A stretch of DNA of 64,000 nucleotides from Candidatus Delongbacteria bacterium (GCA_016938275.1 JAFGUZ010000169.1:1734-65733); one strand, 5' to 3'. Counted from the stretch's first letter, positions 8,026 to 53,236 are shown. The notes: generated from the sequence alone by a model not told the origin. Translations and numbers: made by a program.

Positions 8026-8138
8026 AATCTAAAAAGACTGACACAGTGTACGTCAATAACAATTTTTTTTCTGAGACTTGACAAACACGGTGTCAGAGAT
8101 GTTATAATTTTCTATATTACTATTTAAGGATTGGAGAT

Positions 8139-9035: not shown

Positions 9036-9036
9036 T

Positions 9037-17830: not shown

Positions 17831-20182
17831 TTATTTTAGATAAATCATCTTCTTTAAATAATCTTGCTTAGTTGTTTTCATTCTATAGTAATATACACCG
17901 CTACTTAAATTATCAGCTTTATAATTAATAACATGATTACCTTTTACAAAAAAACCATTGGTTATTGATTGCAGAAATTCTCCGTTTGAATTATAAAGTA
18001 AAAGTTCGACTGGAGAATCCTGAGGTATCGAAAAATTAATTATAGTTTGTGAATTAAAAGGATTTGGATAGTTTTGAGAAAGTTTTATCTCATCAGGTAT
18101 ATTTTTTTCATTATTGATACCGACTTCCTCTGGTTTAGGAATAATAATATGATCTATGAATAAAGTTCCTGAACCTCCTCTAAAGAAACCAATATAGTAA
18201 TTACCCTCTAAATCTAAATCAGTTTCAAACCTTGAGAAGAGATGATTAGGTATGAAATCAGTAATTTCGGTCCAATTTACTCCATCTTCTGAATATTTGA
18301 TTTTAAGATATGGTGACTGCCAATAATAGTTACGTGCATAAAGAGTTAGTTTATCTCCGTAAGAAATTTCAAGTTTTGGTGTGATAAGAGGAGAAGCGTC
18401 AGTTGGCAAACTTGATGACACTGCACACATTATACCTGAATATACACCACTGGCAATATCTTGCAGAAACCAGCTATTGCTATCAGTAGTCCATCCATTT
18501 GGCGGAAATCCACCAGCTTCAAAGTCTTCAAGAATATATCTATCACCTTCAACATCAATTATATCTGATTTTGCATTATTATCATTAAAAAAATCATCAG
18601 ATAGAACTGCTTCAATATTAAAGCTTTGTCGAATAACATCAGGTGTATTCCAATTAAATGTATACTCCTTAATTTCACTTGGCACAATATTGTTTATTTC
18701 AATTATCTCTACTACTTCATCATCAATTTTAATTTCCATAGCACTTCCATTACAGACTTCAAAGCCATTGTTTAAAACTTTCAATGTTATCAATAGATTA
18801 TCATTGGGCATAATCTGAATAGTTTTATCATATTCAATACTTAGAAGTTGCAAATCATTTACGTCTTGTTTAATTTCTGGTCCAATTACATGATCAAGTT
18901 TCACGACACCAAAAAAATCTTTATAGAATCCTAGGTAATATTCCCCTTGGATTGATGATAAACTAATCGAATATTTTTTAACTTCTCCATCAATCATTAT
19001 TGTCTCAAAATCATTCCAGTTTACCTTATCTTCAGAATATTGAATTATAAATGGTTGAGGTGGATCAAAGTTATTTCTACTAATGAAAGAAATAGAATCG
19101 TTTTCATCAATTGTGAGCATTGGAGTTATTATTCTTCCCTGATCATCATGGAAAGAGGTTGCCATATAGTCACCAATAAATCCGAATACAGTTATTTCTT
19201 GACTATACCAAGAATCTGGGAATATCCATACTGATTGAATATCCCAACCGTGAGGTGGAAAAAGTTCACCTTCAAATCCTTCAGCAATCTGCGTATTTGT
19301 AAAAACAGGAACTTTAATTTTTTTTAGATTATTTACAAGATTATCATCATTTATATCAATCAATGTTCCAACATTAACATAGGATGACAATTCTGAATGA
19401 GTTACTTCCCAGCTAAATTGATGTTGAAAAGATGTACCAGATGTTAAATAATCAATAGTTACACTATCAACTTTAGACTCTTCTTTGAGAAGATAAACTT
19501 TTATATTTTCAAAATTTACACTACCTAAATTCACTATATCAGTGTTTATTTGAATTGTCTCACCTTCATAGATATAGTCGAGATCCGATGAAACATAACT
19601 CATTTCTCCTACATAAAGATCGTTAGTTGATTCAAAAATTTCAGGTCCACTTACATCATCTATATGCCATATTGCATTCATATCTGGTTCTTTCAAAAAT
19701 GCTATATAAGCGAATGTGTCTAAAGAATCCAGATCAAACTCAAAGTTATTATATCCACCATTAATTACTGATATTTCACTCAACAAATTCCAATTTGATT
19801 TATCTTCAGACCACATAATTTTGAAGTTTTCTGGTTCCCAAGAATTTTGACTAATCCAAAAACTCAATACTGTGTTTTCTTCTCCAGTAAAATCTAACAT
19901 TGGAGTAACCAGATACCCCCAATTATCACCCTGGATGTAACCACAATAACTTCCAGAATGTGCTCCCCAGCCTTGTCTTACCCATCCGTCATTGAAACTT
20001 CCCGGACGAATTACTTCCCAACCCTCTGGAGGCCATGTCGTAGCTTCAAAACTTTCGTTTAGGATTGAACCTTTTTTCCCTTGTAAAATTGACACGAAAA
20101 CTAAGAGGTATATTAAAGATCTCTTAATTTCGATTACTAGTTTTGACTTTTTCATTTTATCCTCATTTAATTTGTAACTCAC
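17831..20182 (-). CDS. Large secreted protein (783 aa) with a T9SS C-terminal domain
   Basis: Signal peptide; internally repeated roughly 150-aa modules (…FWISQNSW…, …SWYSQEIT…, …SWFLQDIA…); C-terminal LSQNYPNPFNSQTIINFSI…SGVYYYRMKT…KKMIYLK. Confidence 0.7.
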   Translation of the reverse strand: MSYKLNEDKMKKSKLVIEIKRSLIYLLVFVSILQGKKGSILNESFEATTWPPEGWEVIRPGSFNDGWVRQGWGAHSGSYCGYIQGDNWGYLVTPMLDFTGEENTVLSFWISQNSWEPENFKIMWSEDKSNWNLLSEISVINGGYNNFEFDLDSLDTFAYIAFLKEPDMNAIWHIDDVSGPEIFESTNDLYVGEMSYVSSDLDYIYEGETIQINTDIVNLGSVNFENIKVYLLKEESKVDSVTIDYLTSGTSFQHQFSWEVTHSELSSYVNVGTLIDINDDNLVNNLKKIKVPVFTNTQIAEGFEGELFPPHGWDIQSVWIFPDSWYSQEITVFGFIGDYMATSFHDDQGRIITPMLTIDENDSISFISRNNFDPPQPFIIQYSEDKVNWNDFETIMIDGEVKKYSISLSSIQGEYYLGFYKDFFGVVKLDHVIGPEIKQDVNDLQLLSIEYDKTIQIMPNDNLLITLKVLNNGFEVCNGSAMEIKIDDEVVEIIEINNIVPSEIKEYTFNWNTPDVIRQSFNIEAVLSDDFFNDNNAKSDIIDVEGDRYILEDFEAGGFPPNGWTTDSNSWFLQDIASGVYSGIMCAVSSSLPTDASPLITPKLEISYGDKLTLYARNYYWQSPYLKIKYSEDGVNWTEITDFIPNHLFSRFETDLDLEGNYYIGFFRGGSGTLFIDHIIIPKPEEVGINNEKNIPDEIKLSQNYPNPFNSQTIINFSIPQDSPVELLLYNSNGEFLQSITNGFFVKGNHVINYKADNLSSGVYYYRMKTTKQDYLKKMIYLK

Positions 20183-22823: not shown

Positions 22824-25151
22824 TTATTTCTGATGATCACTTTTCTCATAATTTTTCAAATCCTGGATTCTCTCTAAAAGATCATCCCTTTTAAACAACT
22901 TAGCTTGTTCCTCTAATCTTATAATTTTCCTTTTATTTATCTTTCTTTTTTTTATTGTTAGATTCAGTTCAACCTCCTCGATCTCTACCTCGCAAATTCT
23001 GAACAAATCATGATTTATTTTAAAATGTCGTTTACAGTTTCTTAAACATTTAAATGCCATATCATAATGATTTAAACCCTTATAGGCATAAAACTTACCT
23101 TGATATGCTAAACCTACAAATAGAACTTCATTATTTCTTTTTGCCAGTTTTAATTGTTTATCAAAATATAAAATAGCATTACTATAATGTTCTAATTGCA
23201 ATGAGCAGATACCTAAGTTTGTTATAGCAGTAAACTTCAATCGTATATTATCAATATTTTCAGATAAATGAAGCTGCTGATTAAATCGATTGATCGCTAT
23301 TTTATATTTTTTTTTACTTAAGTAGACCGCTCCAATATTTCCCATAGCAGTTGCTATAAATTCGAGATTTTTCATATTTGTAGAAATCTCAAGATCTTTT
23401 AAATGACACTTAAGAGCTTCTTTATATTTTTTTAAAGACATCAAACATATTCCTTTTATCCTATAAGCAATTGCTCTCCCAATGTCACTCTTAATTTTTC
23501 TACTAATTGATAAATAATTATCAGCATACAAGATACTTTGGGTATAATCATTTTTTCGTAATGATAGCATTGCTAGTTTACTTAAACTCTCACCTTGAAG
23601 TTGAAGATTAGTGTTCTTATAACCTAGTTCAATCAATGGTTTATAGTATTTTTCTGCTTCATCGATATTATTTCTAAACAAATAGAGTCCACCAATTCGA
23701 CTAAGGACTGTTGCTTCTAAAGAATAATCTTCTATCCTTTTGGCTACCTCTCTTGCTTTCAAAAGATAAAATCTACCCTTTTCTGTCTCTCCAATTGTTA
23801 AGAAATATGTTCCTAAATTGAGTTGTGCAAAATATAGATCTTTAGGACGATTATATTGCTTTGACAATGTTTCAAGCTTTAGAAAAGTATCTATTGATAA
23901 TTGTTTTTGGCCAGTTTTTTTATAAATATTTGACAAATTTGAATAACTCTCAATTTTTAAGTCTATACTATCTTCAGCACAATTATTTATACAATCAATA
24001 TAAAAGCTTTGAGCTTGAGTATAGTTTAGTTTAATCTCATTGAATTTTGCAGAGATAAAATAATATCTCGTTGAAGTTAAACTATTTTTTTTGATCCACA
24101 TCTTATATATGATCAACATTTCTTCACAAATATCAAATTTTTCATTAAAAGAGGCTTTTTCAATTACAAGAGAAAGTAGAAGTTCAAATTCTGGAATAAC
24201 ATACTTATTCTCAATTAAATAACGAAAAATTGGAATATACATTTTCAAAGATAAATTCATTGCTTTTGTTTCTAATTCAGTAGTTAGATATATTATAAAC
24301 TTACGAGCAAATTTAAAACTCATGGAAAATCGTTCAAAGTTTAGTCTCTCAAACAAAGGTAAACACAACTTAATATCTCTATAATTCACAAACTTGTTAA
24401 GATTAAACTTTAAAATTTCAATAATTGAACTAATTCTTAATTCATTCAAACTCTTAAAATTCAATTTACTAATTAGATGTTTTAAATCCAGATAATAAGA
24501 ATTTTTAAGTTTAACTTTTATTGGAGGAGAGTTTGTATAGTTTGATACAATATTATAAAAGGGACCACTACTTTTTGCATAATGAAAGAATCTTCCCATA
24601 CCAACTTGTACCTTATCTACATGATCAAAACCGTTTAACAAAGTGGTATTTTTAAAGACATATTCAGCAAAATTAGCATTAGTTTGAGAGATGTTTTCAT
24701 TTGTAAAACCAATAATTATCGTATCACTTTTTAAATTGTGAGCTATTTGTATATATTTATATAAACTTTGCACTTGCAAAGGTACAGTATTAAATTGAAT
24801 AACAACTGAATTTACTTTGTTATCTTCTGAAATATATTGAGAAATCTTTTTTAAAACAGTAGATTCTGAAGCCTCAATTTCAAACTCGTCAATTATTTTA
24901 CTTGCACTCCATTTTGGATAAACTGTTTTTGCTGTGATAATTGTAGAAACTATATCATCAGATAAAGAAGAAGGATGAGTTTGTAGTAGTCTAGACTTTG
25001 TTTTCAGTCCAAATTCACCTTCAAGTTTATATCTTTTCACCCATTTTGAAACACTAACTCTAGAAATTTTATATATTTCAGCACTATAAGTGATACCTTT
25101 TTCTAAAGCAGTCTTTACTACTTTGTATCTTAGTTCTGCATTTAACTTCAT
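22824..25151 (-). CDS. Regulatory protein with an N-terminal transposase-like HTH and a C-terminal TPR repeat array
   Basis: N-terminal LRYKVVKTALEKGITYSAEIYKISRVSVSKWVKRYKLEGEFGL is an HTH resembling the IS630/IS3 OrfA family; multiple 34-aa TPR-like repeats follow. Confidence 0.55.
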   Translation of the reverse strand: MKLNAELRYKVVKTALEKGITYSAEIYKISRVSVSKWVKRYKLEGEFGLKTKSRLLQTHPSSLSDDIVSTIITAKTVYPKWSASKIIDEFEIEASESTVLKKISQYISEDNKVNSVVIQFNTVPLQVQSLYKYIQIAHNLKSDTIIIGFTNENISQTNANFAEYVFKNTTLLNGFDHVDKVQVGMGRFFHYAKSSGPFYNIVSNYTNSPPIKVKLKNSYYLDLKHLISKLNFKSLNELRISSIIEILKFNLNKFVNYRDIKLCLPLFERLNFERFSMSFKFARKFIIYLTTELETKAMNLSLKMYIPIFRYLIENKYVIPEFELLLSLVIEKASFNEKFDICEEMLIIYKMWIKKNSLTSTRYYFISAKFNEIKLNYTQAQSFYIDCINNCAEDSIDLKIESYSNLSNIYKKTGQKQLSIDTFLKLETLSKQYNRPKDLYFAQLNLGTYFLTIGETEKGRFYLLKAREVAKRIEDYSLEATVLSRIGGLYLFRNNIDEAEKYYKPLIELGYKNTNLQLQGESLSKLAMLSLRKNDYTQSILYADNYLSISRKIKSDIGRAIAYRIKGICLMSLKKYKEALKCHLKDLEISTNMKNLEFIATAMGNIGAVYLSKKKYKIAINRFNQQLHLSENIDNIRLKFTAITNLGICSLQLEHYSNAILYFDKQLKLAKRNNEVLFVGLAYQGKFYAYKGLNHYDMAFKCLRNCKRHFKINHDLFRICEVEIEEVELNLTIKKRKINKRKIIRLEEQAKLFKRDDLLERIQDLKNYEKSDHQK

Positions 25152-25271: not shown

Positions 25272-26882
25272 ATGAAAACAATAATCCTAATCTTACTTCT
25301 AAATGTTGTAAGCAATATGTTTGCTTCTCAGAAGGGTGAGATAACTCTATTTGAAGAAAATTGGGAAAGTTACCCTGAAGAGGTTTTACCCTTACCTGAG
25401 TATGACCCAAACTGGAAAACAATAATTCACCCTAATGGATCTTATTTTGGTATATGGGCAATTGCCCATGGAGGTACTAGATCTGTTTCCCATTCGACTG
25501 TAGGTCAAGTTTCTGGAAGTCCAAGAGATTGGCTAATTTGTAAGAAACCTTTGGTAATTCCAGAGTATGGTGGAGAATTATCCTTTTGGGCATTATCTTA
25601 TGAACCTCAAAACATAGAAATAAGAGTTTCTGAGACAGTTTATACAGATACGACCGCATTTTCAAGTTATCTATTCAATGAGTCATTTCAGTCCGCTTCA
25701 TTTGCAAAACAAGTGTTTGATTTGACTCCATATGCTGGAAAAACAATCTATATTGCCTGGAAAAGAAAAGGTCCATATGGTTATGCACATGGATCAAATT
25801 GGATTATAGATGACATAAAAATGATTGGGTACACTGAAGATCTTGAAGCTCCAATTTGTGAATATATTACTGGAAATATTGGTCTTGTTGGAAAATCTGT
25901 TTTTTTAAGAGCTAAGATGAAAGATCAAACTAATATCGAATCAGTTTATGGTAGAAGTGAGATTAATGGACAAGTTTCAAGTGATATACTTCTCAGTGAA
26001 AGTGAGCCAGGTAGTGGTGTATATATATTTGAGGTTCCTTACGTAGATGGTGAGTATACAGGATCTGTAAAATTTATTACTAGGGATACTTTAGGAAATG
26101 AAGGAATAACTGAAAGTTTTGAAATAAACTGGAAAAACTATCTTTTATCTGAAAATTTTGAAGATTTGTTTCCTCCTATTGGTTGGTACAATAATGGTTG
26201 GAAAAAAATGAATCAATATGGAGCAAACAATTCATCATGTGCATACAGCAATTACTTAGATGACGGAGAACTTGAATCATCACCTATTAAATTAACAGAT
26301 GATATGCAACTAAGTTTTTATTGTGCGAATAGGTATCTTTATAAGAATTCAAAAATTGAAGGAATAGACACATTGTTTTGTGAACTAAAAACTATAGGTG
26401 AAGATGATTGGACAATTGTAACTATTCATTCTCCTGAAACTCCAGATGAGTCTCATGTGAAATATGTTATCGATCTTAGTCCAGTGAGTGGAGAGGAGAT
26501 TATTCTTCGTTGGAGACACTCTACTAATGGATCATTTCAAGCCGAAGGAGCTCTTGTAGATAGTATTCTAGTTTATAAGAATAACACAACTGCAATTGAT
26601 GATGATGTTACATTTGCAAATACAGCCAAAATAATTGGAGCTTATCCGAATCCTTTTAATCCTACGACTACAATTTCTTTTGAAACTTCAATGAATGGAA
26701 ATGTTAGATTAACAGTTTTTAACTCAAAAGGAGAATTTGTTTCTGAATTAATTAACAAGAATCTAAATAAAGGAAATCATAAAGTTAATTTTGATGCTAC
26801 TTCATTACCTACAGGTGTTTTTTACTATACACTGGAAACGCCTTTCGAGAGTTTAACGAACAAAATGGTATTGGTAAAATAA
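25272..26882 (+). CDS. Secreted protein with a T9SS C-terminal domain
   Basis: Signal peptide; C-terminal IGAYPNPFNPTTTISFETS…TGVFYYTLETP…NKMVLVK. Confidence 0.7.
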   Translation: MKTIILILLLNVVSNMFASQKGEITLFEENWESYPEEVLPLPEYDPNWKTIIHPNGSYFGIWAIAHGGTRSVSHSTVGQVSGSPRDWLICKKPLVIPEYGGELSFWALSYEPQNIEIRVSETVYTDTTAFSSYLFNESFQSASFAKQVFDLTPYAGKTIYIAWKRKGPYGYAHGSNWIIDDIKMIGYTEDLEAPICEYITGNIGLVGKSVFLRAKMKDQTNIESVYGRSEINGQVSSDILLSESEPGSGVYIFEVPYVDGEYTGSVKFITRDTLGNEGITESFEINWKNYLLSENFEDLFPPIGWYNNGWKKMNQYGANNSSCAYSNYLDDGELESSPIKLTDDMQLSFYCANRYLYKNSKIEGIDTLFCELKTIGEDDWTIVTIHSPETPDESHVKYVIDLSPVSGEEIILRWRHSTNGSFQAEGALVDSILVYKNNTTAIDDDVTFANTAKIIGAYPNPFNPTTTISFETSMNGNVRLTVFNSKGEFVSELINKNLNKGNHKVNFDATSLPTGVFYYTLETPFESLTNKMVLVK

Positions 26883-36061: not shown

Positions 36062-37135
36062 TTACTTCACAGTAATTCCGTTGCTATCATCGTCTAAAAC
36101 AACATGTCCAATTATTTCAGCTCTCTCATAACCTTCAGATCTAACTCTTTTTAAAAGCTTTTCTCCTTCATTTTCAGGAACGCTAATCAGTAATCCTCCG
36201 GAAGTTTGGGCATCGTACATCAACATTAGCTTGGTAGAATCCTCTACTGATGTTGTAACATATTTTTTAGCAAAATCTCTATTACTGTATGATCCGGACG
36301 GGAATAAACCCATACTTCCCATATCGTATGCACCCGACATAAATGGGATTTTTGCTGAATCTATAATAATTTTCAAATCATCGTGAAGCATCTCTTTTAA
36401 GTGACCTAACAATCCAAATCCTGTAACATCTGTCATCCCATTTACCCTGTGATCTAAAGCCGCAATAGAGCCAAGTTTATTCAATTGTGACATATAAAAA
36501 GCAGCCTCTAGCATATCTTTCTCATCGCACATATCAGCTTTTATAGCCGTAGTGAGTACACCCGTACCAATAGGTTTGGTTAATATTATTACGTCACCTT
36601 CCTTGATCCCACAATTTTTTATAAATCTTTTAGGATGAACAATTCCAGTAACAGACATACCAAATTTCATTTCAATATCCTCTACAGTATGACCACCAAG
36701 TATTACTCCACCAGCTTCTTTAACTTTTGAAATACCACCAGCTAAAATCTCTCTCAACATCTCTGCACTAATGTGACAGGAATCGTAAGCTACAACATTA
36801 AGTGCATTAAGGACTTTTGCTCCCATAGCAAAAATATCAGATAGACTATTAGCAGCTGCGATTTGACCATAAATATATGGGTCATTAACAACAGGAGTTA
36901 TAAAATCTACAGTTTGAACAATAGCGATATCATCACTAATACGGTAAATTCCGGCATCATCATTACCGTCAAATCCGTGTATGAAATCAGGTGAGACAGG
37001 ATAGTCCAATCCATGTAATACCTTGTGTAAGTCCGACGGACTTAATTTACCGGCTCAACCAGCAGCTCTTACATAGTTGGTTATCTTAATCTCTTTACCT
37101 TCATCGTCCAGATACTTTTTTATTTTGGGTAACAT
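36062..37135 (-). CDS. selD: Selenophosphate synthetase (selenide, water dikinase) SelD, a selenoprotein with an in-frame UGA (Sec) at 37055..37057
   Basis: The ORF-track protein (36062..37009) aligns to SelD from about residue 40 onward (DDAGIY…TVDFITPVVNDPYIYGQIAAANSLSDIFAMGAKV…MTDVTGFGLLGHL). Reading upstream through a TGA gives MLPKIKKYLDDEGKEIKITNYVRAAG-U-AGKLSPSDLHKVLHG, which matches the E. coli N-terminus [22 protein letters not shown] with Sec in place of the catalytic Cys. The start ATG is at 37135 or 37138. Confidence 0.85.
37028..37044 (-). promoter_or_regulatory. SECIS-like recoding hairpin just 3' of the selD UGA
   Basis: mRNA reads UGA-GCCGGUAAAU-UAAGUCCG-U-CGGACUUA; a perfect 8-bp palindromic stem begins about 10 nt after the UGA, the spacing expected for bacterial SECIS elements. 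Confidence 0.5.
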
Positions 37136-38885
37136 CATAGCTTTTTACCAATTCGTAATGTTTTTTTAACTCTTTTTTTGAAAAATAAGATAGTAGTTCT
37201 TTTCTATTTCCAGGTTTTTGGAAACCGAAGATTTTATCTAATAGTTTTCTTTCGTCTACATTTTTTATAACAATTAGCTCTTCACCTGAATAAATATTTC
37301 TTTCAGTGTTGTAAACTATACTTGATAAAGATAAAGGTAATGGAACAAAAGGTCTAACTTCTGCCACAATAAGATTGTTTTCTATTACAAATTGCAATGT
37401 GTCCAGAACTGTATCAAGTGTCTCTCCAGGCATACCAGAGGTTAAAACAATTTTCAAAGTTTTATTAACACTAAACTCACCACATTTTTTCTTGAATTTT
37501 GTAACGAATTTTTTCAAGGGTTCAGAAGGAGGTAAATCATTGGCTTTTCTAACTATATCGGAGAAAGATCCGCAGTAGAGAGTAAATGTTGTACCTGTTC
37601 TTTTCTTCAAAATATCCTTTAAAAGGTCATCACTTTGGTTCAAAATTCTGTAATCGAAGGTATTGTCAAAATAAACTTGTCTAATACCTTTGAAATCCGA
37701 AATATCATCCATAGCTTTTGTAAATCTTGGAACATTTACAGAAAGATTTGAGCAAAAATCTTTACCTGCAGTTTCAAGACAAGTGTATCTTACACAGGAG
37801 TTACACTTATATGGCTTACGAATATCCAAAGCGTATTGATCACCCTTTCCATAGCCAGGATTCTTTAAAACAGATTTAAAATATTTACTTTTTCTTGTTC
37901 TGTCAGAATCCATCACCAAGGCTCCAATTCCTCTCTGTGAAATATCTCTGCCCTCGTGAATATAGGTATTACCACTAAGATCACCGATCTGAGTAAATAA
38001 TCCATTAGAAAGAACTTTTTCAAAGAATGGGATTTCTCCATTGATACCGAAATGAGGTTTATTTCTATAGGATTGATTAAAAATTATTTTCAACTGATCA
38101 TTATCGTATGGCAAATGGTTTTTATTTATAACTATATATCTGTCAAGTACTTTTTGGAATAGACCGTTTGAACCAGGATGAATATTGGCAAGGAAGGTTC
38201 TATACATAGAAATAAATGTTTCCTTATTTTCCCTGCATTCATCATAAGAAGGTAGTTCTTCATATCCTACGGGTTTATCTTTCGATATATAGGAAATTCC
38301 AGGTTGACCATAAAGACTTTCAAAACCAAGATCACTCTTCATGTGGTTGGCTGTTCTTTGAACATTTAGCTCCAATTTATCAAAAATTAAAAGATCTGCT
38401 TTAGAGTCGAAGAGAACAGGCTTTCTGATTTGATCACCCCAAAAATCATAGTGTGTAATTCTTCTGCCAGAAGCTTCTGCACCAGCTAAGACAACTTTAC
38501 AATCTTTGTATAGCGATTTTAATTTTGAAGTGATTGTAATGATGGCTCTGTCGGGTCTGTTTGATCTCTCTCCATCTTTTTGGAATGGATCAGAACTTCT
38601 AAACTTTTTAAAAGCACTGTAATTCATTGTCATCGAGTCTTCTTTACCTGTTATTAAGAGAAAAAAAAGTTCCGGTTTCCCGAATTTTTTAAAATCTTCA
38701 TCCTTACCAGGGTTGGAGATTATTACCGTTCTCATACCTGAACTTACCAAAACTCTTCCCACTCTTGCAATTTCATAATAGGGGTGATCTACATATTCAT
38801 CACAAGTAACGATTATTACATCTGCTTTTTTCCATCCATTTTTTTTCATTTCGTCATTATTAACGGGAAGAAAATCGGTCTTCAT
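37101..38885 (-). CDS. YgiQ/UPF0313-family protein (radical SAM N-terminal domain homolog) lacking the canonical CX3CX2C motif
   Basis: DVIIVTCDEYVDHPYYEIARVGRVLVSSG…KPELFFLLITGKEDSM…RPDRAIITITSKLK…VLAGAEASGRRITHYDFWGDQIRKPVLFDSKADLLIF aligns closely with the E. coli YgiQ N-domain. At the position of RGCFGGCSFCSITEHEGR it has FTQIGDLSGNTYIHEGR, with no Cys. Its 3' end overlaps the selD start by about 35 nt. Confidence 0.65.
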   Translation of the reverse strand: MKTDFLPVNNDEMKKNGWKKADVIIVTCDEYVDHPYYEIARVGRVLVSSGMRTVIISNPGKDEDFKKFGKPELFFLLITGKEDSMTMNYSAFKKFRSSDPFQKDGERSNRPDRAIITITSKLKSLYKDCKVVLAGAEASGRRITHYDFWGDQIRKPVLFDSKADLLIFDKLELNVQRTANHMKSDLGFESLYGQPGISYISKDKPVGYEELPSYDECRENKETFISMYRTFLANIHPGSNGLFQKVLDRYIVINKNHLPYDNDQLKIIFNQSYRNKPHFGINGEIPFFEKVLSNGLFTQIGDLSGNTYIHEGRDISQRGIGALVMDSDRTRKSKYFKSVLKNPGYGKGDQYALDIRKPYKCNSCVRYTCLETAGKDFCSNLSVNVPRFTKAMDDISDFKGIRQVYFDNTFDYRILNQSDDLLKDILKKRTGTTFTLYCGSFSDIVRKANDLPPSEPLKKFVTKFKKKCGEFSVNKTLKIVLTSGMPGETLDTVLDTLQFVIENNLIVAEVRPFVPLPLSLSSIVYNTERNIYSGEELIVIKNVDERKLLDKIFGFQKPGNRKELLSYFSKKELKKHYELVKSYDVTQNKKVSGR

Positions 38886-42045: not shown

Positions 42046-43248
42046 TTGGTTTTTAAAATCAGCTTGTCTCCAAGGTTAAAAAAAATGGAGACACAAATGA
42101 CAACATTGAAAAATTATGGTTGGGATGATTTTTTTGAAGTTAACTTTAAAAATAATGGTTATTTGGAATTTGGGTATCAACCAGCAAGAATAACTAAGGA
42201 AACAAAAAATCTATATTTTATTATGACTAAAGATGGAGAAGCTAAGGCTATTAATTCAAATAAATTCTTTTTGAGTACTTTCTCAAGAGATCAATTACCT
42301 GTAGTAGGGGACTGGGTGGTAGTCCACAAGCCTGTTAATAATGAAAATTATTTTATTGAAGGAGTTCTTGAAAGGAGAACCAGACTTGTAAGAAAAGGTA
42401 AAGATACATTTGGAAGAAATTTTGTGAAAGCAGGAGATAGTAGTGTTAGTGTCATTTCTGCAAATATTGACACTGTATTTTACGTTGCATCTTTGGATTA
42501 TAGAGATTTTAATCTATCAAAAATTGAAAGATACATTCTTATGCTCCATGATAGCGGAGCTAAACCTGTACTAATTCTGAACAAAAAAGATATTTGTCCC
42601 GATTATTTAGATTATATCGAAAAACTTAAGAAAATTTCTGGAGATATACCGATACATGCGGTAAGTGCAGTCGATTTCGATGGAATTGAAGAGCTTTTGG
42701 ATTATATATCTGAAGGAAAAACGGTATCATTTATTGGATCTTCGGGAGTTGGAAAATCATCAATTGTCAATGCTCTTATGGGCGAGGATAAGATGTATGT
42801 AAGCAGAATACGAGAGGCTGACAAAAGAGGTCGTCACACAACTACACATAGAGAAATGATTTTGTTTCCAGAAGGTGGAGTTTTGATTGATAATCCCGGA
42901 ATTAGAGATTTAAAACCTGTTTCATCGTCCGATGCATTAGATGCGACTTTTGAAGATATTACTGATTTAGAAAGTCAATGCAGATTCAGTGATTGTAAGC
43001 ATAATAACGAACCTGGATGTGCAATCATTAAAGCTCTGGAATCAGGAGAATTATCCGTAAAAAGATATGAGAATTATCTAACATTAAAACGAGAAGCTGA
43101 TTTTTTTGAAAGGAGAGCAAAAATGAGAGAACATTTTTTAGAGAAAGCTGCTGTAAATGAAAAAAAAGGAGGTAAAAAGATTAAAAACCATATGAAGGGA
43201 AGAAAGAAAAGAGATAAATATTTTGATTCAACTGAATATAGTCTCTAG
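42046..43248 (+). CDS. rsgA: Ribosome small-subunit-dependent GTPase A (RsgA/YjeQ)
   Basis: Circularly permuted GTPase order (NKKD…GSSGVGKSSIVNAL…DNPG) and zinc-finger CRFSDCKHNNEPGCAI; the true start may be an internal Met (METQ… or MTTL…). Confidence 0.8.
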   Translation: MVFKISLSPRLKKMETQMTTLKNYGWDDFFEVNFKNNGYLEFGYQPARITKETKNLYFIMTKDGEAKAINSNKFFLSTFSRDQLPVVGDWVVVHKPVNNENYFIEGVLERRTRLVRKGKDTFGRNFVKAGDSSVSVISANIDTVFYVASLDYRDFNLSKIERYILMLHDSGAKPVLILNKKDICPDYLDYIEKLKKISGDIPIHAVSAVDFDGIEELLDYISEGKTVSFIGSSGVGKSSIVNALMGEDKMYVSRIREADKRGRHTTTHREMILFPEGGVLIDNPGIRDLKPVSSSDALDATFEDITDLESQCRFSDCKHNNEPGCAIIKALESGELSVKRYENYLTLKREADFFERRAKMREHFLEKAAVNEKKGGKKIKNHMKGRKKRDKYFDSTEYSL

Positions 43249-43260
43249 TTATTATTGAAT

Positions 43261-43285
43261 TGGGAGTAAACTACTCCCTTTTCTT
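43261..43285 (+). terminator. Rho-independent terminator after rsgA
   Basis: GGGAGTA-AAC-TACTCCC followed by TTTTCTTT. Confidence 0.6.
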
Positions 43286-43498
43286 TGCACAATTTTAACT
43301 TACTCAAGGAGTTGAGGAGTAAATGAGTGAAGACAAAGAAATAGTAATGACTGCCAATTTTTAAAAACTCTGTTCCCTTCATTTTCAAATTTCAATCAAA
43401 TAAATCATAAAACCCTCAACAACATTTCCTCTTGAATTTAACTGTAAAATATAGTATCCTTTCAATAATGTATATCGTCAATTTGGAGATTATAAATT

Positions 43499-44404
43499 AT
43501 GACACAACGAAAACTTATAAGCTTTGACTGGGCAATGAAAAAAATGCTGAGGAGTAAAGCCAATTTCGATATTCTTGAAGGGTTCTTATCTGAACTTTTA
43601 TCAGACGATATAAAAATTTTAGAAATACTAGAAAGTGAAAGTAATAAATCTTATGATAATGACAAGTTTAATAGAGTTGATCTATTAGTAAAAAGTAAAG
43701 ATGATAGTATTATAATAATTGAACTTCAATATGATTATGAATATGATTTTATGCTCAGAATGCTTTATGGAACAAGTAAAATTGTAACAGAGCATATGAA
43801 ACAAGGTGCTCCGTATTCAGAAGTAAAAAAGGTAATATCTATAAATATTGTTTACTTTGATCTGGGACAAGGCAAGGATTATGTTTACAAAGGAACAACC
43901 AATTTTATTGGTCTCCACGAAAAAGACGAATTACAATTAAGCCAAATTCAAAAGGATAAACTAAAGAGAGAATCTATTTATCAACTATATCCTGAATATT
44001 ATCTTTTGAAAATCAATAATTTTAATGACTTTGCAAAAAATACACTAGATGAGTGGATCTACTTTCTGAAAAATGAAGAGATAAAGCCAGAATTTAAAGC
44101 TAAAGGTTTAAAAGAAGCTAAAGATAAATTGGATATTATGAAACTATCTGGTAGCGATTTGCAATCATACAATAGACATAGAGAAAATTTACATTATGCT
44201 GCTAGTATGGCTGAATCTGTTAAGATTGAAGCAGAAGAGAAGATTTGGAAAAAAGGATTAGTTGAAGGCGAGAAATTAGGTCTTGAAAAAGGTGAGAAGT
44301 TAAAAGCTATTAAAATTGCTAAAAACTGTCTAGAAAAAAAGATGGATTATGATACCATTTCTTTTTTAACTGGTTTGTCTGTAGAAGAGATAAGAGGATT
44401 GTGA
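43499..44404 (+). CDS. Rpn-family recombination-promoting nuclease / putative transposase (PD-(D/E)XK, YhgA-like)
   Basis: RVDLLVKSKDDSIIIIELQYDYE nuclease core; C-terminal EGEKLGLEKGEKLKAIKIAKNCLEKKMDYDTISFLTGLSVEEIRGL repeat tail is characteristic of the family. Confidence 0.7.
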   Translation: MTQRKLISFDWAMKKMLRSKANFDILEGFLSELLSDDIKILEILESESNKSYDNDKFNRVDLLVKSKDDSIIIIELQYDYEYDFMLRMLYGTSKIVTEHMKQGAPYSEVKKVISINIVYFDLGQGKDYVYKGTTNFIGLHEKDELQLSQIQKDKLKRESIYQLYPEYYLLKINNFNDFAKNTLDEWIYFLKNEEIKPEFKAKGLKEAKDKLDIMKLSGSDLQSYNRHRENLHYAASMAESVKIEAEEKIWKKGLVEGEKLGLEKGEKLKAIKIAKNCLEKKMDYDTISFLTGLSVEEIRGL

Positions 44405-44415
44405 AGAGTCTGTAG

Positions 44416-44450
44416 AGGCGTTATTTATAACGCCTTATCCATTTTAATTT
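44416..44450 (+). terminator. Possible terminator
   Basis: AGGCGTTAT-TT-ATAACGCCT hairpin followed by an interrupted T-rich tail. Confidence 0.4.
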
Positions 44451-45313
44451 TAATTGCCCTGTCATCTTGAACGAAGAAAGAGATCTTTTTTAGCCTCGAA
44501 TTACACGAATGAAATACCAGAATACAATATTCTATAGAAGGACGTTTAGACATGGATAATCTCACAATTCTGTAAATCATGGTTCAAATGATCCAGATGT
44601 CAGACACCTTTGAGGTGGCAGACATCTAAACTCTCGCGATGCCTGAAAGGCACAAAATGATTATAGCTTTGAAAGAAGCAAATGAAACAGAATATTAGCT
44701 GATGTTGTTAAGATATAGTGAATCCATAGATTTAAAAAGCTATGATTCCATTTATCCTGAAGCTGAATCACTAATAAAACTTTTAGTAAGTATAGTAAAT
44801 ACTACGAAAGTAAAATTACAATCTTAACATTTTCCATTTTCAATTAGATAAGTAGACATTAACGAGAAAATTAAGCTGACTGGCTTTTACATGGAACTAT
44901 AAAAAAGACTATTGAAGAGGAACTTAGGTTCGATTTGAATGATAAAATTGAAGAATTTAAACTCATTGCTGAAAACTGTGTGAACAATCCTGATCTTGGT
45001 AAAGGTCTTTCTATGTACGGGAAAATTGATAGATTACGATTTGATAACTTCTATATCGATAGTGATAGAATTACGCTGTATATTTATGCCAACGGTCATT
45101 CTGGTATTATGATGAAATAGTTTTTAAGATTTTATTAATTAGGTGAAGTAGATATACTCTTAATATTAACTGTTATAAGAAATTATTTTAGGAGATTTGT
45201 TAACAAATATTGTATATTTTTAAATAATTTAAAAAAATATTGCGAGATCATTTTTCTGTTTATATAATGTTTATGTTATCAAGTTGAAATAGCAATGTGT
45301 ACAAAAGTTAACT

Positions 45314-45724
45314 TTGTATTCAAAGCGGAATGGAGCATACATAAAAAAGCTAATTGTAATTTTTAATCATGGAAAACTTACTGAAGATCAAGCGTATTAT
45401 GCTTATGATGTATTGAAGATTGGTGAGATTATTTATATGAATGAAGAGTTGAAAAGTATTTGGTCAGAAATTGATCCTTTTGAAGATGTAGTAAATGTTG
45501 AGAAAATTGAAGAATTCCTTTTAAAATCTAGTAAACCGTACGACTATGTATTAGTTCAAGGAGAGTTTGGAGCTACATTCAAAACTGTGAACTTTTGCCT
45601 AGAAAATGAAAGAATAGCAATCTATGCAACAACCGAAAGAGTCAGTAGGGAAATGAGAAATGATGATGGAAGCGTTTCAAAGACAAGTGAATTTAAGTTT
45701 GTTAGGTTTAGGGAGTATGGGTAA
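45314..45724 (+). CDS. Hypothetical protein (136 aa)
   Basis: ORF only, in an island-like region; no recognisable motif. Confidence 0.3.
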   Translation: MYSKRNGAYIKKLIVIFNHGKLTEDQAYYAYDVLKIGEIIYMNEELKSIWSEIDPFEDVVNVEKIEEFLLKSSKPYDYVLVQGEFGATFKTVNFCLENERIAIYATTERVSREMRNDDGSVSKTSEFKFVRFREYG

Positions 45725-45812
45725 TAGGAATTAATTAAAAGTTGAAAAACGTATATCTTAACAAAAATCAAATAGTGAAATCAATAGTTCTTGCAAAAGG
45801 GTAAATTACAAT

Positions 45813-47186
45813 ATGACATTAGACGAGATAAAAAGGTTTATAGAACTGGGTGAAGGTTTTCATCTTGAGTTGAAAGAATCATTAGATAAAAATTTAATAG
45901 AAGAAGTTTGTGCTTTTGCTAATTCCAGTGGCGGAAAAATTATACTCGGAGTTACAGATAAAGGTATTATAAAAGGAATCAATACAGATAATGCCACTCG
46001 TTCAAAAGTACAAGATATGTTACAACAGCTTGAACCTTCTTTACCTATTATAATCAGTGTGCTTGAAAATTTAATAATAATTGATGTACCTCAGGGAACA
46101 GAAAAACCTTATGGTTGTTCAAGAGGATTTTTTTTAAGAATTGGTCCAAATAGTCAAAAATTATCAAGAAATGAAATCGTTAGTTTTTTTGAAAAAGAAG
46201 GTCGAATTCGTTTTGATGAATTAGAAAACAGAAAAGCTGATTTCAGTAATGACTTTGACGAGAATGCATATAAGAAATTTATTCAACTTGCTAATATAAC
46301 GCCGTCTATTGAAAAAACATATCTTTTAAAAAACCTTGACTGCTTAAATGAGAATAGTAAACTGACTAATGCTGGAGTACTCTTTTTTACAAAATCAACT
46401 GATTTCTTAATAAATCATGCAACTGTTGTATGTGTTTTATATAAAGGAAATGAAAAACTTCATATCTTAGATAAGAAAGATTTTAAATCCAGCATCATTG
46501 AAAATATTGAAAACGCTGTTCTTTTTGTACAAAGACATACAAATCTTGCCTATAAAATAGAGCATTTACAAAGAGAAGAAATACCGGAAATACCAGAACT
46601 AGCTTTAAGAGAATCTATTATTAATGCTGTTTGCCATCGAGATTACTTCCAAAAAGGCTCTAATGTTATGATTGAAATATTTGATGATAGAGTTGAGATA
46701 TCAAATCCTGGAGGAATACCTTCTGAATTAGATCCGGCTGATTTTGGCACTAAAAGTGTAGCTCGGAATCCTGTTATCGCTTCATTATTACATCGAGTTG
46801 ATTATATTGAGAAAATAGGTAGTGGAATAAACAGGATAAAAAATTCTGTCAGTGATCAAAACAGTTGTACAGTTGAGTTTAAGCTTACTGGCTTTTTTAC
46901 AGTAACTTTTAAAAGAGTAGATATGATTATGAGCAGTAAAACTTCGGAGAAAACTTCGGAGAAAACTTCGGAGAAAACTTCGGAGAAAACTTCGGAGAAA
47001 ACTTCGGAGAAAATATTAAATTTGTTAAAAGAAAACTCAACAATTACTATTCAGGATTTAGCAAATTTACTCAATAAATCTACAAGGGCTGTAGAGATGC
47101 AGATTAGCAAACTAAAGTCTGAGAATAAAATTTTAAGAATTGGTGCCGATAAAGGTGGATACTGGGAAGTTGTCGAAAAAGAATGA
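45813..47186 (+). CDS. AlbA_2 (Schlafen-like) + HATPase_c_4 putative transcriptional regulator with an internal SEKT x6 repeat and a C-terminal wHTH
   Basis: N-terminal FHLELKESLD…AFANSSGGKIILGV (AlbA_2); ALRESIINAVCHRDY…GSNVMIEIFDDRVEISNPGG (HATPase_c_4); C-terminal TIQDLANLLNKSTRAVEMQISKL. Confidence 0.6.
   Translation: MTLDEIKRFIELGEGFHLELKESLDKNLIEEVCAFANSSGGKIILGVTDKGIIKGINTDNATRSKVQDMLQQLEPSLPIIISVLENLIIIDVPQGTEKPYGCSRGFFLRIGPNSQKLSRNEIVSFFEKEGRIRFDELENRKADFSNDFDENAYKKFIQLANITPSIEKTYLLKNLDCLNENSKLTNAGVLFFTKSTDFLINHATVVCVLYKGNEKLHILDKKDFKSSIIENIENAVLFVQRHTNLAYKIEHLQREEIPEIPELALRESIINAVCHRDYFQKGSNVMIEIFDDRVEISNPGGIPSELDPADFGTKSVARNPVIASLLHRVDYIEKIGSGINRIKNSVSDQNSCTVEFKLTGFFTVTFKRVDMIMSSKTSEKTSEKTSEKTSEKTSEKTSEKILNLLKENSTITIQDLANLLNKSTRAVEMQISKLKSENKILRIGADKGGYWEVVEKE
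46941..47012 (+). repeat. Perfect 12-nt tandem repeat (ACTTCGGAGAAA) x6, encoding (TSEK)6
   Basis: Six identical in-frame units within the linker of the 45813..47186 gene. Confidence 0.9.
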
Positions 47187-47413
47187 ATCCGGACGGTATA
47201 TGCTACAAGAAGGTTAGTTGGAAGAAATTAAAAAGAAGCAAAACAATAAAGGGGTTATAGGAATATGAACGACAATATACTGGTGCTGAATTTCAGCAGT
47301 TGAATGGTTAAATGACTAGAATACTTTCTTAAATGGAACCGATTTTGATTGAACTTTTAGAAAAATTCAGGTTTTTATATTTACCTTTTTTAGCAAAAGA
47401 GATAATCATGTCT

Positions 47414-47432
47414 CTAGCGATGAAGTCGCTGG
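47414..47432 (+). repeat. Hairpin repeat copy C (CTAGCGATGAAGTCGCTGG) plus a T-run
   Basis: 17 of 19 positions identical to the hairpins at 29752 and 63635. Confidence 0.5.
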
Positions 47433-47536
47433 ATGGATTTTTTTCATAGCTATTCTACTTAGTATGTATTCCTGCCTATGAAATAGTGAATTATATAAAA
47501 CAATTCAAAATTTGATAAGCTTAGAATTCTCAGAAG

Positions 47537-49258
47537 CTAATTTGTTCCTTTTTTTAAAAGAAATTTATTACCAGAATAGTGAAAACTACATGGATTTTTG
47601 ATAAGAATCTTATATCCTTTTCCTGGTTGCATTTCATTGAGAGAATGATAATTCCATAACGGAACATTCAAATATCCTTCAATCGATTTAACAGCATAAA
47701 TATTATTCAGAATATCAGATAAAACCTCGTCTACAGTAATTGAAGTATTCTTATAATAAGGTAAAAAATTCCACCCGATTTCTAGATCGATAATTTCAAC
47801 TTCTGGATTAATAATATTCCCTTGTAAAGTTAAATTTACACTTTCTGTAGTTTTAACAAAGAAACAATCATCAAAATCCCATTGCATCTGAGATCTATTT
47901 TTCAATAATGGACTGTAAATATTTCCCAATTCATCTTTAACGAGAATTACACTATTGTTAATCTCTGAAAAAATTTGATCAATATTTGACTGTATCGGAT
48001 TTATATATGAAGAAATAAGATTCCAACCTTTTTCTAATGAAATTGTTTGTGAACCTCCAATAACTTCGATGTTAAAGATATGATGAATCTGAGCAAAACC
48101 ATCTGAAAAAGTTAGATTAATTTCATAATCACCAATATCACTCACTTGAGGAGTTCCAGATAATTTTTTAGTAGTATTATCATATACCATCCAACTTGGT
48201 ATTGTCGCATTAGTAGTTTCAATATTATCACCATCTATGTCTTGAATTGCTATATCGTAGAGATATTCAGTTCCAATTAAAGCAATAGTTTCAGGGCTTG
48301 ATGCTATTTCAGGTGATTTATTACCAAATGACCCTGTCAAAATAAAATTATTACCAAAGTTAGAACTATTAAAGTTAAGTAAATTATTGTTTATGTTAAC
48401 TTGATTTATAGTTTCAAGTGTATCTACAGCATAAAATGAATTATACATATGATTTTCTGCTCCATTTAGGTCAGAATCTAAATATGAACAGTTAAAACTA
48501 CATTCATAACCGGAAATACCATTCATTTTAATAGACCAGTACCTATTGATGGAGGAGCTAGCTGAACTTAAAGAAAATTTTTCACTCTTAAGTGATACTT
48601 CTACACTACTTTTATTAAAAACACCTGATGAAAAATTCAGCGTAATTGGAGTTATATTATCTCCATCAGCTATAGTATTAATTGGAAATGTAAAAATTCC
48701 TGAACTATTATAATCTTTTAATACGCTACCGCCATCTTCAATAGTTATGTATCCATTATCCCTTAAAACATCAACTCCCTCAGCAAAATAAACACTATTA
48801 CTTCCTGTTCTAATTTTACTATCGTTTAGAAAAAGTGAATTTTCAATTCTTATGGGAATATTCAAACATATACCAAAAGGATTATTTAGCTCGAGTTTAT
48901 TAAATGTTATAGAGTAAACTCCAGATAAAGTTTGAATACTTAAACCATTAAATAATGTTTTACCTCTAGAATTGTAATGAATTGGGTTAGCTGAGTTGTT
49001 TTGACTAATAAAATCTCCGGTAAGACTAAAAACTGCGTTTTCAAAAATATTTACAGCACCATATCCGAAACTTTTATAATCTCCATCAACAGTAAAAAAA
49101 GTACCATTTTCAACAACTATATAAGCACGATCATTACTTACAATCACTTTATCATCATCTTTCGAGTCGTTAATCTCTATCTTATAGTCAGTACTATTAC
49201 TATGGACATGATAGGTAAAGAAAAATAAAACTATTAGAATTATAATATTTTTTTTCAT
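47537..49258 (-). CDS. Secreted protein with a cadherin-like/putative Ig (He_PIG-like) domain
   Basis: Signal peptide; …IPSWMVYDNTTKKLSGTPQVSDIGDYEINLTFSDG… matches the He_PIG pattern. Confidence 0.45.
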   Translation of the reverse strand: MKKNIIILIVLFFFTYHVHSNSTDYKIEINDSKDDDKVIVSNDRAYIVVENGTFFTVDGDYKSFGYGAVNIFENAVFSLTGDFISQNNSANPIHYNSRGKTLFNGLSIQTLSGVYSITFNKLELNNPFGICLNIPIRIENSLFLNDSKIRTGSNSVYFAEGVDVLRDNGYITIEDGGSVLKDYNSSGIFTFPINTIADGDNITPITLNFSSGVFNKSSVEVSLKSEKFSLSSASSSINRYWSIKMNGISGYECSFNCSYLDSDLNGAENHMYNSFYAVDTLETINQVNINNNLLNFNSSNFGNNFILTGSFGNKSPEIASSPETIALIGTEYLYDIAIQDIDGDNIETTNATIPSWMVYDNTTKKLSGTPQVSDIGDYEINLTFSDGFAQIHHIFNIEVIGGSQTISLEKGWNLISSYINPIQSNIDQIFSEINNSVILVKDELGNIYSPLLKNRSQMQWDFDDCFFVKTTESVNLTLQGNIINPEVEIIDLEIGWNFLPYYKNTSITVDEVLSDILNNIYAVKSIEGYLNVPLWNYHSLNEMQPGKGYKILIKNPCSFHYSGNKFLLKKGTN

Positions 49259-51244: not shown

Positions 51245-53236
51245 CTAATCATGACACAACGAACATTTAATATCATCGTTAGTTTTATGATTTCCACTGA
51301 ATGAAAAGCTCCATTCATCATGGCAACGTAGACAATCAAATGAAGCATTAACATGAAACTTAGAAGATGCTTTTAAAAAGTCAGTTTTATGACAATCATA
51401 ACAATTATTATGAGGTTTAGTAGTTCTGAAAGTAATATCATTTTCATGGCATTCATCACAATCGGCAATTTTATGAGAACCATTGAGTCTAAATCCCGAA
51501 AATTTATGTTTATAATCTAAAATACTCCATTCTTCAACATCATGACATTCGGAGCAATTACTATTTAAATAACCTTTATGATAATCTGAATGACAACTAA
51601 TACATGATGACGACACATTAAAATTATGATTCTTATGACAGACATTACAATCTGTTTGAGCATGCTTTCCAGCTTCGAACTTTTGGTTCTTGTGATCATA
51701 ATTTACATTCTTAAACTTAACATCATTATGACAGGTATTACACTTTAAGTCTAGATTATTATTATGGATATTCTCATGACAAAATTTACAATCAATTGAT
51801 TTATCCTCAAAAACTGCATTTTTTACATTTTTATAATCCGGACTGCTTCCACTCCACTTGTGACACTCTCTACATTTCAAATCTTTATGGCTGTTTACGG
51901 TTTTAAAATTTAGTTTATTATGATCAAATTTACCGGTATTTTTCCAATCAGTCTGATTATGACAATCCAAACAATTTTTACTCAATTGATTATTATGACG
52001 ATCTTCATGGCAGTCTAGACAAGTAACATCTTTATCAGAAATATAAAACTTATGCTCTTTTTTATGGCATTTACTACACTCTTTATCCTTGTGAGCCTCA
52101 ACTAGTTCATATTTTGCCAATCTTGTATGGTCGAAATTGTCTGCAATCTTAAAATTTTTCTGATTATGGCACTTCAGACATTCATCACTTAATGTATTTT
52201 TATGAACATCCTCATGGCAGCTTTGACAAGTGGAAAATTTCAATTTTCGATTAACTTTATGGCATTCAAAACATTTTAAATCTGCATGAGTATCCACTAG
52301 TTCGTAATTTGATACTTTCTTATGGTCAAAAGGTTTTAAATCTTTAAATGATGTTTCCTTATGACATAATTGACAATCTTTATCCTTAGTATCGAAAACA
52401 TTTTGGTGGTTTGATTCATGACAAGATGAGCAAGTTTTTTTATCAAGCTTGTACTCTCTGGTTTCATGGCAAGTATTACAACTTAATGTTCTATGAACAT
52501 CAACAAGTTTAAAACCTGTCGTATCATGATTAAAAATTTCTGGTTGAAAAAATGTTTTATCAAAAACACTGTGGCAAGCTTCGCATTTATTGCCAAGTTT
52601 TCCTTTATGAGGCTCATCTTTTCCGTGACAATCAATACAATTTTTCTTTTCAGTTTTAAATTTATATTCAGAGTGACACTTAAGACAAGTTAGCTTAGTA
52701 TGAGAACCCAAAATATCAAATTTATCATGTTTAAAACTATCATTCATTTTCTTGAAACTATTTGTATTATGGCATCTCTCACAATCATTATCAAACTCTT
52801 TATCATGTTTACTTTCATGGCATGTATGACAATTTGTAGACTCTACCATATACGTGGAATCACTTTTTGTATGGCAATTATTACAATTAACTCTAATATG
52901 ATTTCCAGTAAGTTTATATCCTGTTTCATCATGATTAAAGGATCCAATATTCAAATTTCTAGAATCATAATCTATTCCATGATGGTCAGAATGACACTTA
53001 AAACAATCCTCTTTCTTATCTTTATGATAACCTTTATTTTCGTCAATTCTCTTCTTTAAAACTTTATGACATGCTAAACACAAATCTTCAGATAAAGTTT
53101 TTTCAGAGGTGTGACATAATGAACAGCTATCCAGCGTATCGTAAGCAGAATGAGACTTTGTCAATTTTCCTGGACTGAAAATACTTGAAATTCCCAGAAC
53201 TGTCAGGATGAATATGAATAGAATTATTTTTTTCAT
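51245..53236 (-). CDS. Periplasmic multiheme cytochrome c (about 28 CxxCH motifs)
   Basis: Signal peptide; about 28 CxxCH haem-binding sites in 663 aa with repeating CxxCH-(x)n-H modules. Confidence 0.85.
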   Translation of the reverse strand: MKKIILFIFILTVLGISSIFSPGKLTKSHSAYDTLDSCSLCHTSEKTLSEDLCLACHKVLKKRIDENKGYHKDKKEDCFKCHSDHHGIDYDSRNLNIGSFNHDETGYKLTGNHIRVNCNNCHTKSDSTYMVESTNCHTCHESKHDKEFDNDCERCHNTNSFKKMNDSFKHDKFDILGSHTKLTCLKCHSEYKFKTEKKNCIDCHGKDEPHKGKLGNKCEACHSVFDKTFFQPEIFNHDTTGFKLVDVHRTLSCNTCHETREYKLDKKTCSSCHESNHQNVFDTKDKDCQLCHKETSFKDLKPFDHKKVSNYELVDTHADLKCFECHKVNRKLKFSTCQSCHEDVHKNTLSDECLKCHNQKNFKIADNFDHTRLAKYELVEAHKDKECSKCHKKEHKFYISDKDVTCLDCHEDRHNNQLSKNCLDCHNQTDWKNTGKFDHNKLNFKTVNSHKDLKCRECHKWSGSSPDYKNVKNAVFEDKSIDCKFCHENIHNNNLDLKCNTCHNDVKFKNVNYDHKNQKFEAGKHAQTDCNVCHKNHNFNVSSSCISCHSDYHKGYLNSNCSECHDVEEWSILDYKHKFSGFRLNGSHKIADCDECHENDITFRTTKPHNNCYDCHKTDFLKASSKFHVNASFDCLRCHDEWSFSFSGNHKTNDDIKCSLCHD

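Follow-up and report, generated by a model that had tools for sequence, protein, structure and literature searches.

The selD gene of Candidatus Delongbacteria in the 64-kb window (the whole stretch of DNA analysed here) is very likely a functional gene for a selenoprotein, in which the reactive residue of the catalytic loop would be selenocysteine (Sec), encoded by an in-frame UGA and specified by a hairpin that SelB would bind. This reading builds on the identity of the gene, the alignment of the UGA with the Cys/Sec position, the conservation of this codon among relatives and the presence of a conserved hairpin with bSECIS geometry; SelB presumably binds this hairpin, at 37044-37028. In the predicted course of expression, translation would start at the ATG at 37138 (or 37135), and with the UGA at 37057-37055 in the A site, the 17-nt hairpin located 10 nt downstream would recruit SelB carrying Sec-tRNA(Sec), so that Sec would be inserted at the UGA and translation would run on to the stop codon at 36062. 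The competing explanations, namely, a pseudogene, read-through without Sec, an alternative genetic code and a hairpin that is a by-product of coding, appear improbable even when taken together, the question of whether this particular hairpin is the SECIS being counted apart.

The gene is an ordinary Sec-type selD of a known kind and leaves the current understanding of Sec decoding unchanged. Among the selenoprotein families of prokaryotes, SelD ranks second in breadth of distribution (PMC13188914), and FdhA and SelD have been called 'the most widespread selenoproteins' (PMC1794560). Our literature search found no publications on selenoproteins or selenocysteine in the Delongbacteria phylum. 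The Candidatus Delongbacteria lineage is a probable selenocysteine user, and its contig also bears a yedE-type cluster for the uptake and delivery of selenium.

The selD gene and its annotation

The full coding sequence of selD occupies positions 36062-37138 on the minus strand and consists of 358 codons, including the one for Sec, followed by the stop codon at 36064-36062. Translation from the ATG at 37138 reads MMLPKIKKYLDDEGKEIKITNYVRAAG*AGKLSPSDLHKVL..., with the TGA at 37057-37055 as the sole internal stop, and continues downstream of the TGA with the longer excerpt AGKLSPSDLHKVLHGLDYP. Three codons before the first ATG, the frame is closed by a TAA (37147-37145), which limits the possible ATG starts to 37138 and a second ATG at 37135 (minus strand). 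The former is probably the actual start, given that M1 then falls on the first Met of L091, the nearest relative (N-terminus MKLPNFKKY, compared with MMLPKIKKY in the window).

By the evidence of profile searches and of matches to solved structures, this locus is a gene for SelD (selenide, water dikinase). The profile search was run on the 358-aa product with Cys in place of the internal stop, and the NCBIfam model TIGR00476 (selD) matched it over profile positions 2-309 of 311 with 338.3 bits (cut-off, 125); the stricter PRK00943 model gave 281.5, under its cut-off of 299. Among the solved SelD structures, HMMER matched the chains from Aquifex (2yye, E = 1.5e-68) and from E. coli (3u0o, E = 4.3e-59). 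The nearest database relatives, among the matches listed, are 57-62% identical.

The mechanical ORF list contains, instead of the full gene, a shortened ORF of 315 aa that starts with TTG (36062-37009, minus strand), for which the two domains AIRS and AIRS_C (PF00586 and PF02769) are recorded. This product lacks the catalytic loop and, compared to the full frame, 42-43 residues. It is likewise called on Logan contigs, and the 315-aa ORF is known from Logan only. The initial annotation, which was made from the sequence alone, had identified the gene as a SelD with an ORF start at the TTG at 37009 that omits about 42 N-terminal residues, and both the translation and the profile match of the extended product bear this out; its gene end at 36062 also stands, and its start at 37135 gives way to the likelier 37138.

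The same annotation described the gene as missed by ORF calling, which is accurate for stop-to-stop lists and Prodigal-type callers and very probably does not extend to GenBank, where the numbering leaves room for one record. Positions 1-47024 of the window are also covered by contig JAFGEE010000180.1 (GCA_016931755.1) of a Delongbacteria MAG, which has a sibling MAG. The protein accessions run, in the first and the second MAG, respectively, from a Gfo-family oxidoreductase (MBN1969765 and MBN2835978) through an NTP transferase (MBN1969766 and MBN2835977) and ygiQ (MBN1969767 and MBN2835976) to a substrate-binding protein (MBN1969769 and MBN2835974), with one number missing in each MAG at the position of selD. 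Because the gap coincides with selD in both MAGs, a protein of this locus very probably exists in GenBank already, as MBN1969768.1 / MBN2835975.1, and the missing record is probably the U-containing SelD call of PGAP. Selenoprotein genes are usually misannotated owing to the UGA (PMC4561486). The finding is chiefly of use for annotation, in which a selenoprotein of 358 aa should replace the 315-aa ORF, the latter being devoid of the catalytic loop.

Immediately upstream of selD lies a gene for a ygiQ-family radical SAM protein (37101-38885, minus strand; TIGR03904, 352.8 bits, below the cut-off of 462), the last 38 nt of which overlap the start of selD. Given this overlap, the two genes are probably co-transcribed. 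The adjacency, together with an overlap, is kept in L091 (ygiQ at 8128-9900 of that locus). We know of no link between YgiQ and selenium.

The UGA codon and the catalytic loop

Alignment with homologues places the in-frame TGA (37057-37055, minus strand) at residue 28, within the loop G-U-A-G-K, in exactly the column of the loop Cys of both 2yye and 3u0o, and the Lys three residues on is retained. Specifically, AAG-U-AGK aligns with SSGCAAK in 2yye and with GAGCGCK in 3u0o. The conserved Lys of the G-[U/C]-x-x-K loop, K31, is encoded by the AAA codon at 37048-37046 (minus strand), in which AA is invariant (alignment columns 19-20), and matches the K of GCGCK in the E. coli protein. The G-[U/C]-x-x-K motif was found in all full-length SelD homologues, and in the Cys-type homologues the residue aligned with the TGA is Cys. 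The assignment of the UGA to the catalytic position in the initial annotation, and the E. coli loop that it quoted for comparison, thus agree with the alignment to the solved structures, in which the TGA falls on Cys.

Two known systems frame this gene. The Sec-type SelD of Aquifex aeolicus (PDB 2yye/2zod) belongs to the same family, with the AIRS and AIRS_C domains and the same N-terminal loop, and its reactive residue is aligned to the UGA and followed three residues later by Lys, as in the selD of the window. The deposited Aquifex chains have Cys at this site, in contrast to the UGA in the window; the native enzyme carries Sec. The Cys-type SelD of E. coli (PDB 3u0o) is the same enzyme, and its loop aligns with AAGUAGKLSP of the window, but the residue is Cys rather than Sec, and the E. 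coli-type Cys genes in our sample have no downstream hairpin.

Among the listed matches in species-representative GTDB relatives, the aligned codon is TGA in 71 of 80 and TGC or TGT in the remaining 9. L091 and L093, the nearest relatives (62% and 61% identity, respectively), also have the TGA, and so do both Logan assemblies of the organism, L001 and L002, which are independent of each other. Compared with L091, synonymous and non-synonymous substitutions are about equally numerous in the 27 codons that precede the TGA, and the peptide KEIK(I/L)TN-VRAAG is kept, so that this stretch is under coding constraint.

These comparisons bear directly on the possibility that the TGA is a real stop, in which case selD would be a pseudogene, or a truncated gene with only the 315-aa product made from the TTG at 37009. 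The listing of this product by ORF callers and the failure to find the Sec machinery in the approximately 84 kb searched would fit such a gene. A random nonsense mutation, however, would not recur at the same codon in 71 of the 80 listed relatives from many phyla, the peptide upstream of the TGA would not be expected to remain conserved with synonymous differences from L091, and the 315-aa product has no G-[U/C]-x-x-K loop, a feature of all full-length homologues. We consider a pseudogene or a truncated SelD very unlikely compared with a complete selenoprotein gene.

Traces of the UGA are discernible in the protein database as well. The close SelD homologues there are mostly about 319 aa long, among the matches listed, and were thus cut at the same place, at the UGA. 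Several public SelD entries of full length (P0003, P0004, P0005, P0068, P0081, P0082, P0115 and P0117) have W at the Sec position (AAGWAGK). Given that the selD loci for which the DNA was read show TGA, TGC or TGT and never TGG, the W-bearing entries are probably mis-translated selenoproteins in which a gene caller read the UGA as Trp; P0003-P0005 are known from protein records alone.

An alternative genetic code, with UGA as a sense codon for Trp or Gly, could be invoked in view of the low G+C content (about 30%) and of the W found at the UGA position in several database homologues. Against it, of the 42 long ORFs in the window, 8 end in TGA, the upstream neighbour of selD among them, TGG is used 179 times in the window, and the homologues that lack TGA always have Cys at the aligned residue. 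Furthermore, selD is the only candidate in the 64 kb with an in-frame TGA that stands out from noise. Stop-codon usage effectively refutes a reassigned UGA, which is the least probable of all the explanations considered, and the UGA of selD is best read as a Sec codon in an otherwise standard code. When in-frame TGAs flanked by long open frames were sought in all six frames of the window and in the flanks, selD and noise were all that was found; three further TGA positions that appeared in the six-frame scan of the window are explained by overlapping genes. The search for additional UGA-containing genes that had been proposed along with the initial annotation accordingly returned selD alone, within the window and its flanks.

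The hairpin downstream of the UGA

RNA folding predicts a bSECIS-type hairpin, UAAGUCC-GUC-GGACUUA, at 37044-37028 on the minus strand, with a stem of 7 bp and a 3-nt loop at 37037-37035. The stem begins 10 nt, and the loop 17 nt, after the UGA. In DNA, this segment is the palindrome TAAGTCCG-T-CGGACTTA (37044-37028), from which the initial annotation had deduced a perfect hairpin of 8 bp about 10 nt past the UGA. The palindrome and its location are as described there, but the RNA stem comprises 7 bp with a GUC loop rather than 8 bp with a 1-nt loop, because a 1-nt loop is sterically impossible. The SECIS-type placement, as also claimed, agrees with the spacing of the bSECIS model, and the hairpin is conserved (80.9% pairing over 57 genes).

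According to the description of the bSECIS model of Zhang and Gladyshev given in a 2026 review (PMC13188914), the loop has 3-9 nt, the stem 4-16 bp, and the distance from the UGA to the loop is 16-37 nt, with a G among the first two nucleotides of the loop, after which G or U is usual, and a minimum free energy of -7.5 kcal/mol or lower. The selD hairpin shares with this consensus the location of a stem-loop inside the coding sequence just past the UGA, and has the 3-nt GUC loop, 7-bp stem, G followed by U, and 17-nt spacing that fit the rules for loop size, stem, loop G and distance. Its energy is -7.0 kcal/mol in context (-6.3 kcal/mol when isolated), so that the hairpin alone is slightly weaker than the -7.5 kcal/mol limit of the model and thus a borderline case in this respect. 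With a possible lower helix of 3 bp, in which GCC at 37054-37052 would pair with GGU at 37022-37020 (37020-37054, minus strand), the energy of the resulting MFE structure reaches -9.5 kcal/mol; this helix is weakly supported, 64.9% of the cells being paired in relatives. The minimal SECIS element of E. coli fdhF is a 17-nt upper stem-loop located about 11 nt past the UGA. It shares its working principle with the selD hairpin, which has closely similar dimensions (17 nt, at 10 nt); the two sequences are unrelated, and the selD hairpin has no bulged U and a loop of 3 nt (GUC).

A bSECIS of selD has been recovered by RNAz (PMC4561486). In an Rfam scan of the window at the gathering score, neither the SECIS family nor any other family was matched, and a permissive scan of 36900-37200 yielded only chance-level matches to snoRNA and lncRNA models. 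A second hairpin, UGCUGGU-UGA-GCCGGUA, in which the UGA forms the loop, was considered and rejected as a by-product of the Ala and Gly codons; it pairs in 51.5% of the cells in relatives.

Perfect palindromes of this size are not in themselves rare: the window contains 14 with a 7-bp stem and a 3-nt loop, compared with 11.5 in shuffled sequences. In the interval permitted for a bSECIS after any given site, approximately 0.04 such palindromes are expected. When the peptide AGKLSPSDLHKVLHGL was recoded synonymously (5000 versions, with the codon usage of the window), 1.3% of the versions folded as well as the native sequence, with a mean of -4.1 ± 1.9 against the observed -9.2. Thus, position, conservation and rarity among synonymous recodings (1.3%) jointly place the hairpin above chance.

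To assess conservation, pairs were counted over 57 Sec-type selD genes that represent many phyla and were aligned without gaps. The seven column pairs of the hairpin hold standard pairs in 80.9% of the cells, compared with 21-61% when the 3' arm is slid. Both sides of a pair have changed in 15 cells, against 3.8 expected, and none of 500 shuffles reaches 15, in a count that takes neither kinship nor coding into account; these double changes fall at 3 of the pairs. In Campylobacter, GACCC-GUC-GGGUC (encoding D-P-S-G-L) differs from AGUCC-GUC-GGACU of the window (S-P-S-D-L) by three consecutive compensatory pairs, which replace amino acids yet preserve the pairing. Alignment column 25, the first base of a Ser or Gly codon (A or G), co-varies with the synonymous U or C of a Leu codon (odds ratio 12, Fisher p = 0.002, kinship being ignored). 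A G is present within the first two loop columns in 55 of the 57 genes.

The selD genes with a Cys codon offer a partial control. Those of the E. coli type (L046, L051, L052 and L055) form 2-5 of the 7 pairs. In the Campylobacterota, three selD genes with a Cys codon (L024, L035 and L043) keep the hairpin, for example, AUGGGUCCGGGGGAUCUA, and tRNA-Sec is still located within 10 kb of the Cys-type selD in two of these (L035 and L043). Such hairpins are consistent with fossil SECIS elements left after a recent Sec-to-Cys conversion. The 'remnant SECIS' situation, as in these Campylobacterota Cys forms, has been described previously (PMC1794560).

It is also conceivable that the hairpin is a by-product of coding for K-L-S-P-S-D-L, in which case SelB would recognise another element and the gene would still be a selenoprotein. 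The conserved peptide (G/S)-P-x-D-L does force part of the pairing, the codon pattern GGN-CCN...GAY-YUN being self-complementary, and RNAalifold returned an empty consensus structure for the 57-sequence alignment, which would suit such an origin, as would the near-background frequency of 7-bp palindromes noted above. Nevertheless, so few synonymous recodings fold equally well, and the substitutions between S-P-S-D-L and D-P-S-G-L change amino acids while keeping the stem; in addition, the first position of the Leu codon, where the change is synonymous, follows its partner. Nor do three of the E. coli-type Cys genes (L046, L052 and L055) form more than 2-3 of the 7 pairs, and no alternative conserved helix was found, the one around the UGA being paired at 51%. 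A coding by-product is therefore unlikely, even if it is the least improbable of the alternatives, and the hairpin is best regarded as the putative SECIS of selD. On a more speculative reading, at which the amino-acid-changing compensatory substitutions hint, this hairpin would be an ancient SECIS that has constrained the protein sequence next to the loop in more than 10 phyla.

Selenium genes and other features of the window

The initial annotation assigned selA, selB and tRNA-Sec to the genome outside the window. ARAGORN predicted no tRNA, either in the 64-kb window or in its flanks, the NCBIfam scan of 42 window ORFs found neither selA nor selB, tblastn with the verified SelA and SelB of relatives gave no match in the window or flanks, and walking contig JAFGEE010000180.1 for another 10 kb revealed no selA, selB or tRNA-Sec. 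The search thus covered approximately 84 kb, that is, the 64-kb window and about 20 kb of adjoining contig, and because this is a small part of the genome, the missing Sec genes are uninformative. These genes are presumed to lie elsewhere in the genome.

In relatives, the Sec machinery is directly linked to selD. Within 10 kb, tRNA-Sec is found at 14 TGA-type selD loci and a SelB-like ORF at 16; among the neighbouring ORFs, models confirmed three SelB and two SelA, including a SelB that adjoins selD in Cloacimonadota. As indirect support in the case of this organism, a four-gene cluster associated with selenium lies 5.3-8.1 kb beyond window position 1 (L083, 17039-19792), on contig JAFGEE010000180.1, which also carries selD of the window. 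It consists of yedE (TIGR04112, 511 bits against a cut-off of 200), a TusA/YedF-like gene of 67 aa, a cysteine desulfurase of the EF2568/SclA family (410 bits; cut-off, 377) and a DUF3343 'Se/S carrier'. In the relative L093, the yedE, yedF-like, desulfurase and DUF3343 genes are located directly upstream of selD.

The distribution of these genes weighs on whether the UGA could be read through without Sec in a genome devoid of selA and selB, either by a near-cognate tRNA for Cys or Trp, or with stimulation by the hairpin, as proposed for hymenopteran SPS1-UGA. The Sec machinery was indeed not encountered in the approximately 84 kb, and stem-loops by the UGA have been described that promote non-Sec read-through in insect SPS1 (PMC4561486). 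On the other side, an absence from so small a part of the genome carries no weight, those relatives with readable flanks that showed Sec genes all had them by a TGA-type selD, and the contig has its own selenium uptake and delivery cluster. We regard read-through without Sec as very improbable, marginally more so than a pseudogene, and retain Sec insertion as the mode in which the UGA of selD would be decoded; were it true, such read-through would make selD a bacterial counterpart of the hymenopteran SPS1-UGA element.

Several features of the window are unrelated to selD. An Rpn-family recombination-promoting nuclease is encoded at 43499-44404 and a Csx20 CRISPR-associated protein at 45314-45724 (both plus strand); a repeat search of 43000-48000 found no CRISPR array. 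The ORF at 45813-47186, for the product of which no family was matched, contains a perfect tandem repeat with a 12-nt unit, AAAACTTCGGAG x 6.3 (46938-47013, plus strand), translated as (KTSE)n.

The genes at 51245-57242 (minus strand) and 57503-58336 (plus strand) include faint Pfam matches to multihaem cytochrome c, 4Fe-4S ferredoxin-type proteins and a T9SS-tailed protein, and no NCBIfam match was found for most of the proteins in this run. Together, these genes may form a module for electron transfer in the periplasm or outside the cell. Five proteins of the window (5876-7351, 15328-16734, 17831-20182, 25272-26882 and 56415-57242) bear a C-terminal sorting domain of T9SS type A (TIGR04183), and the organism accordingly possesses a type IX secretion system, as do bacteria of the FCB group. 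Finally, the gene at 22824-25151 (minus strand) encodes a 775-aa protein in which an IS481-transposase-like N-terminal region (residues 8-100) is fused to TPR-type repeats, an unusual combination.
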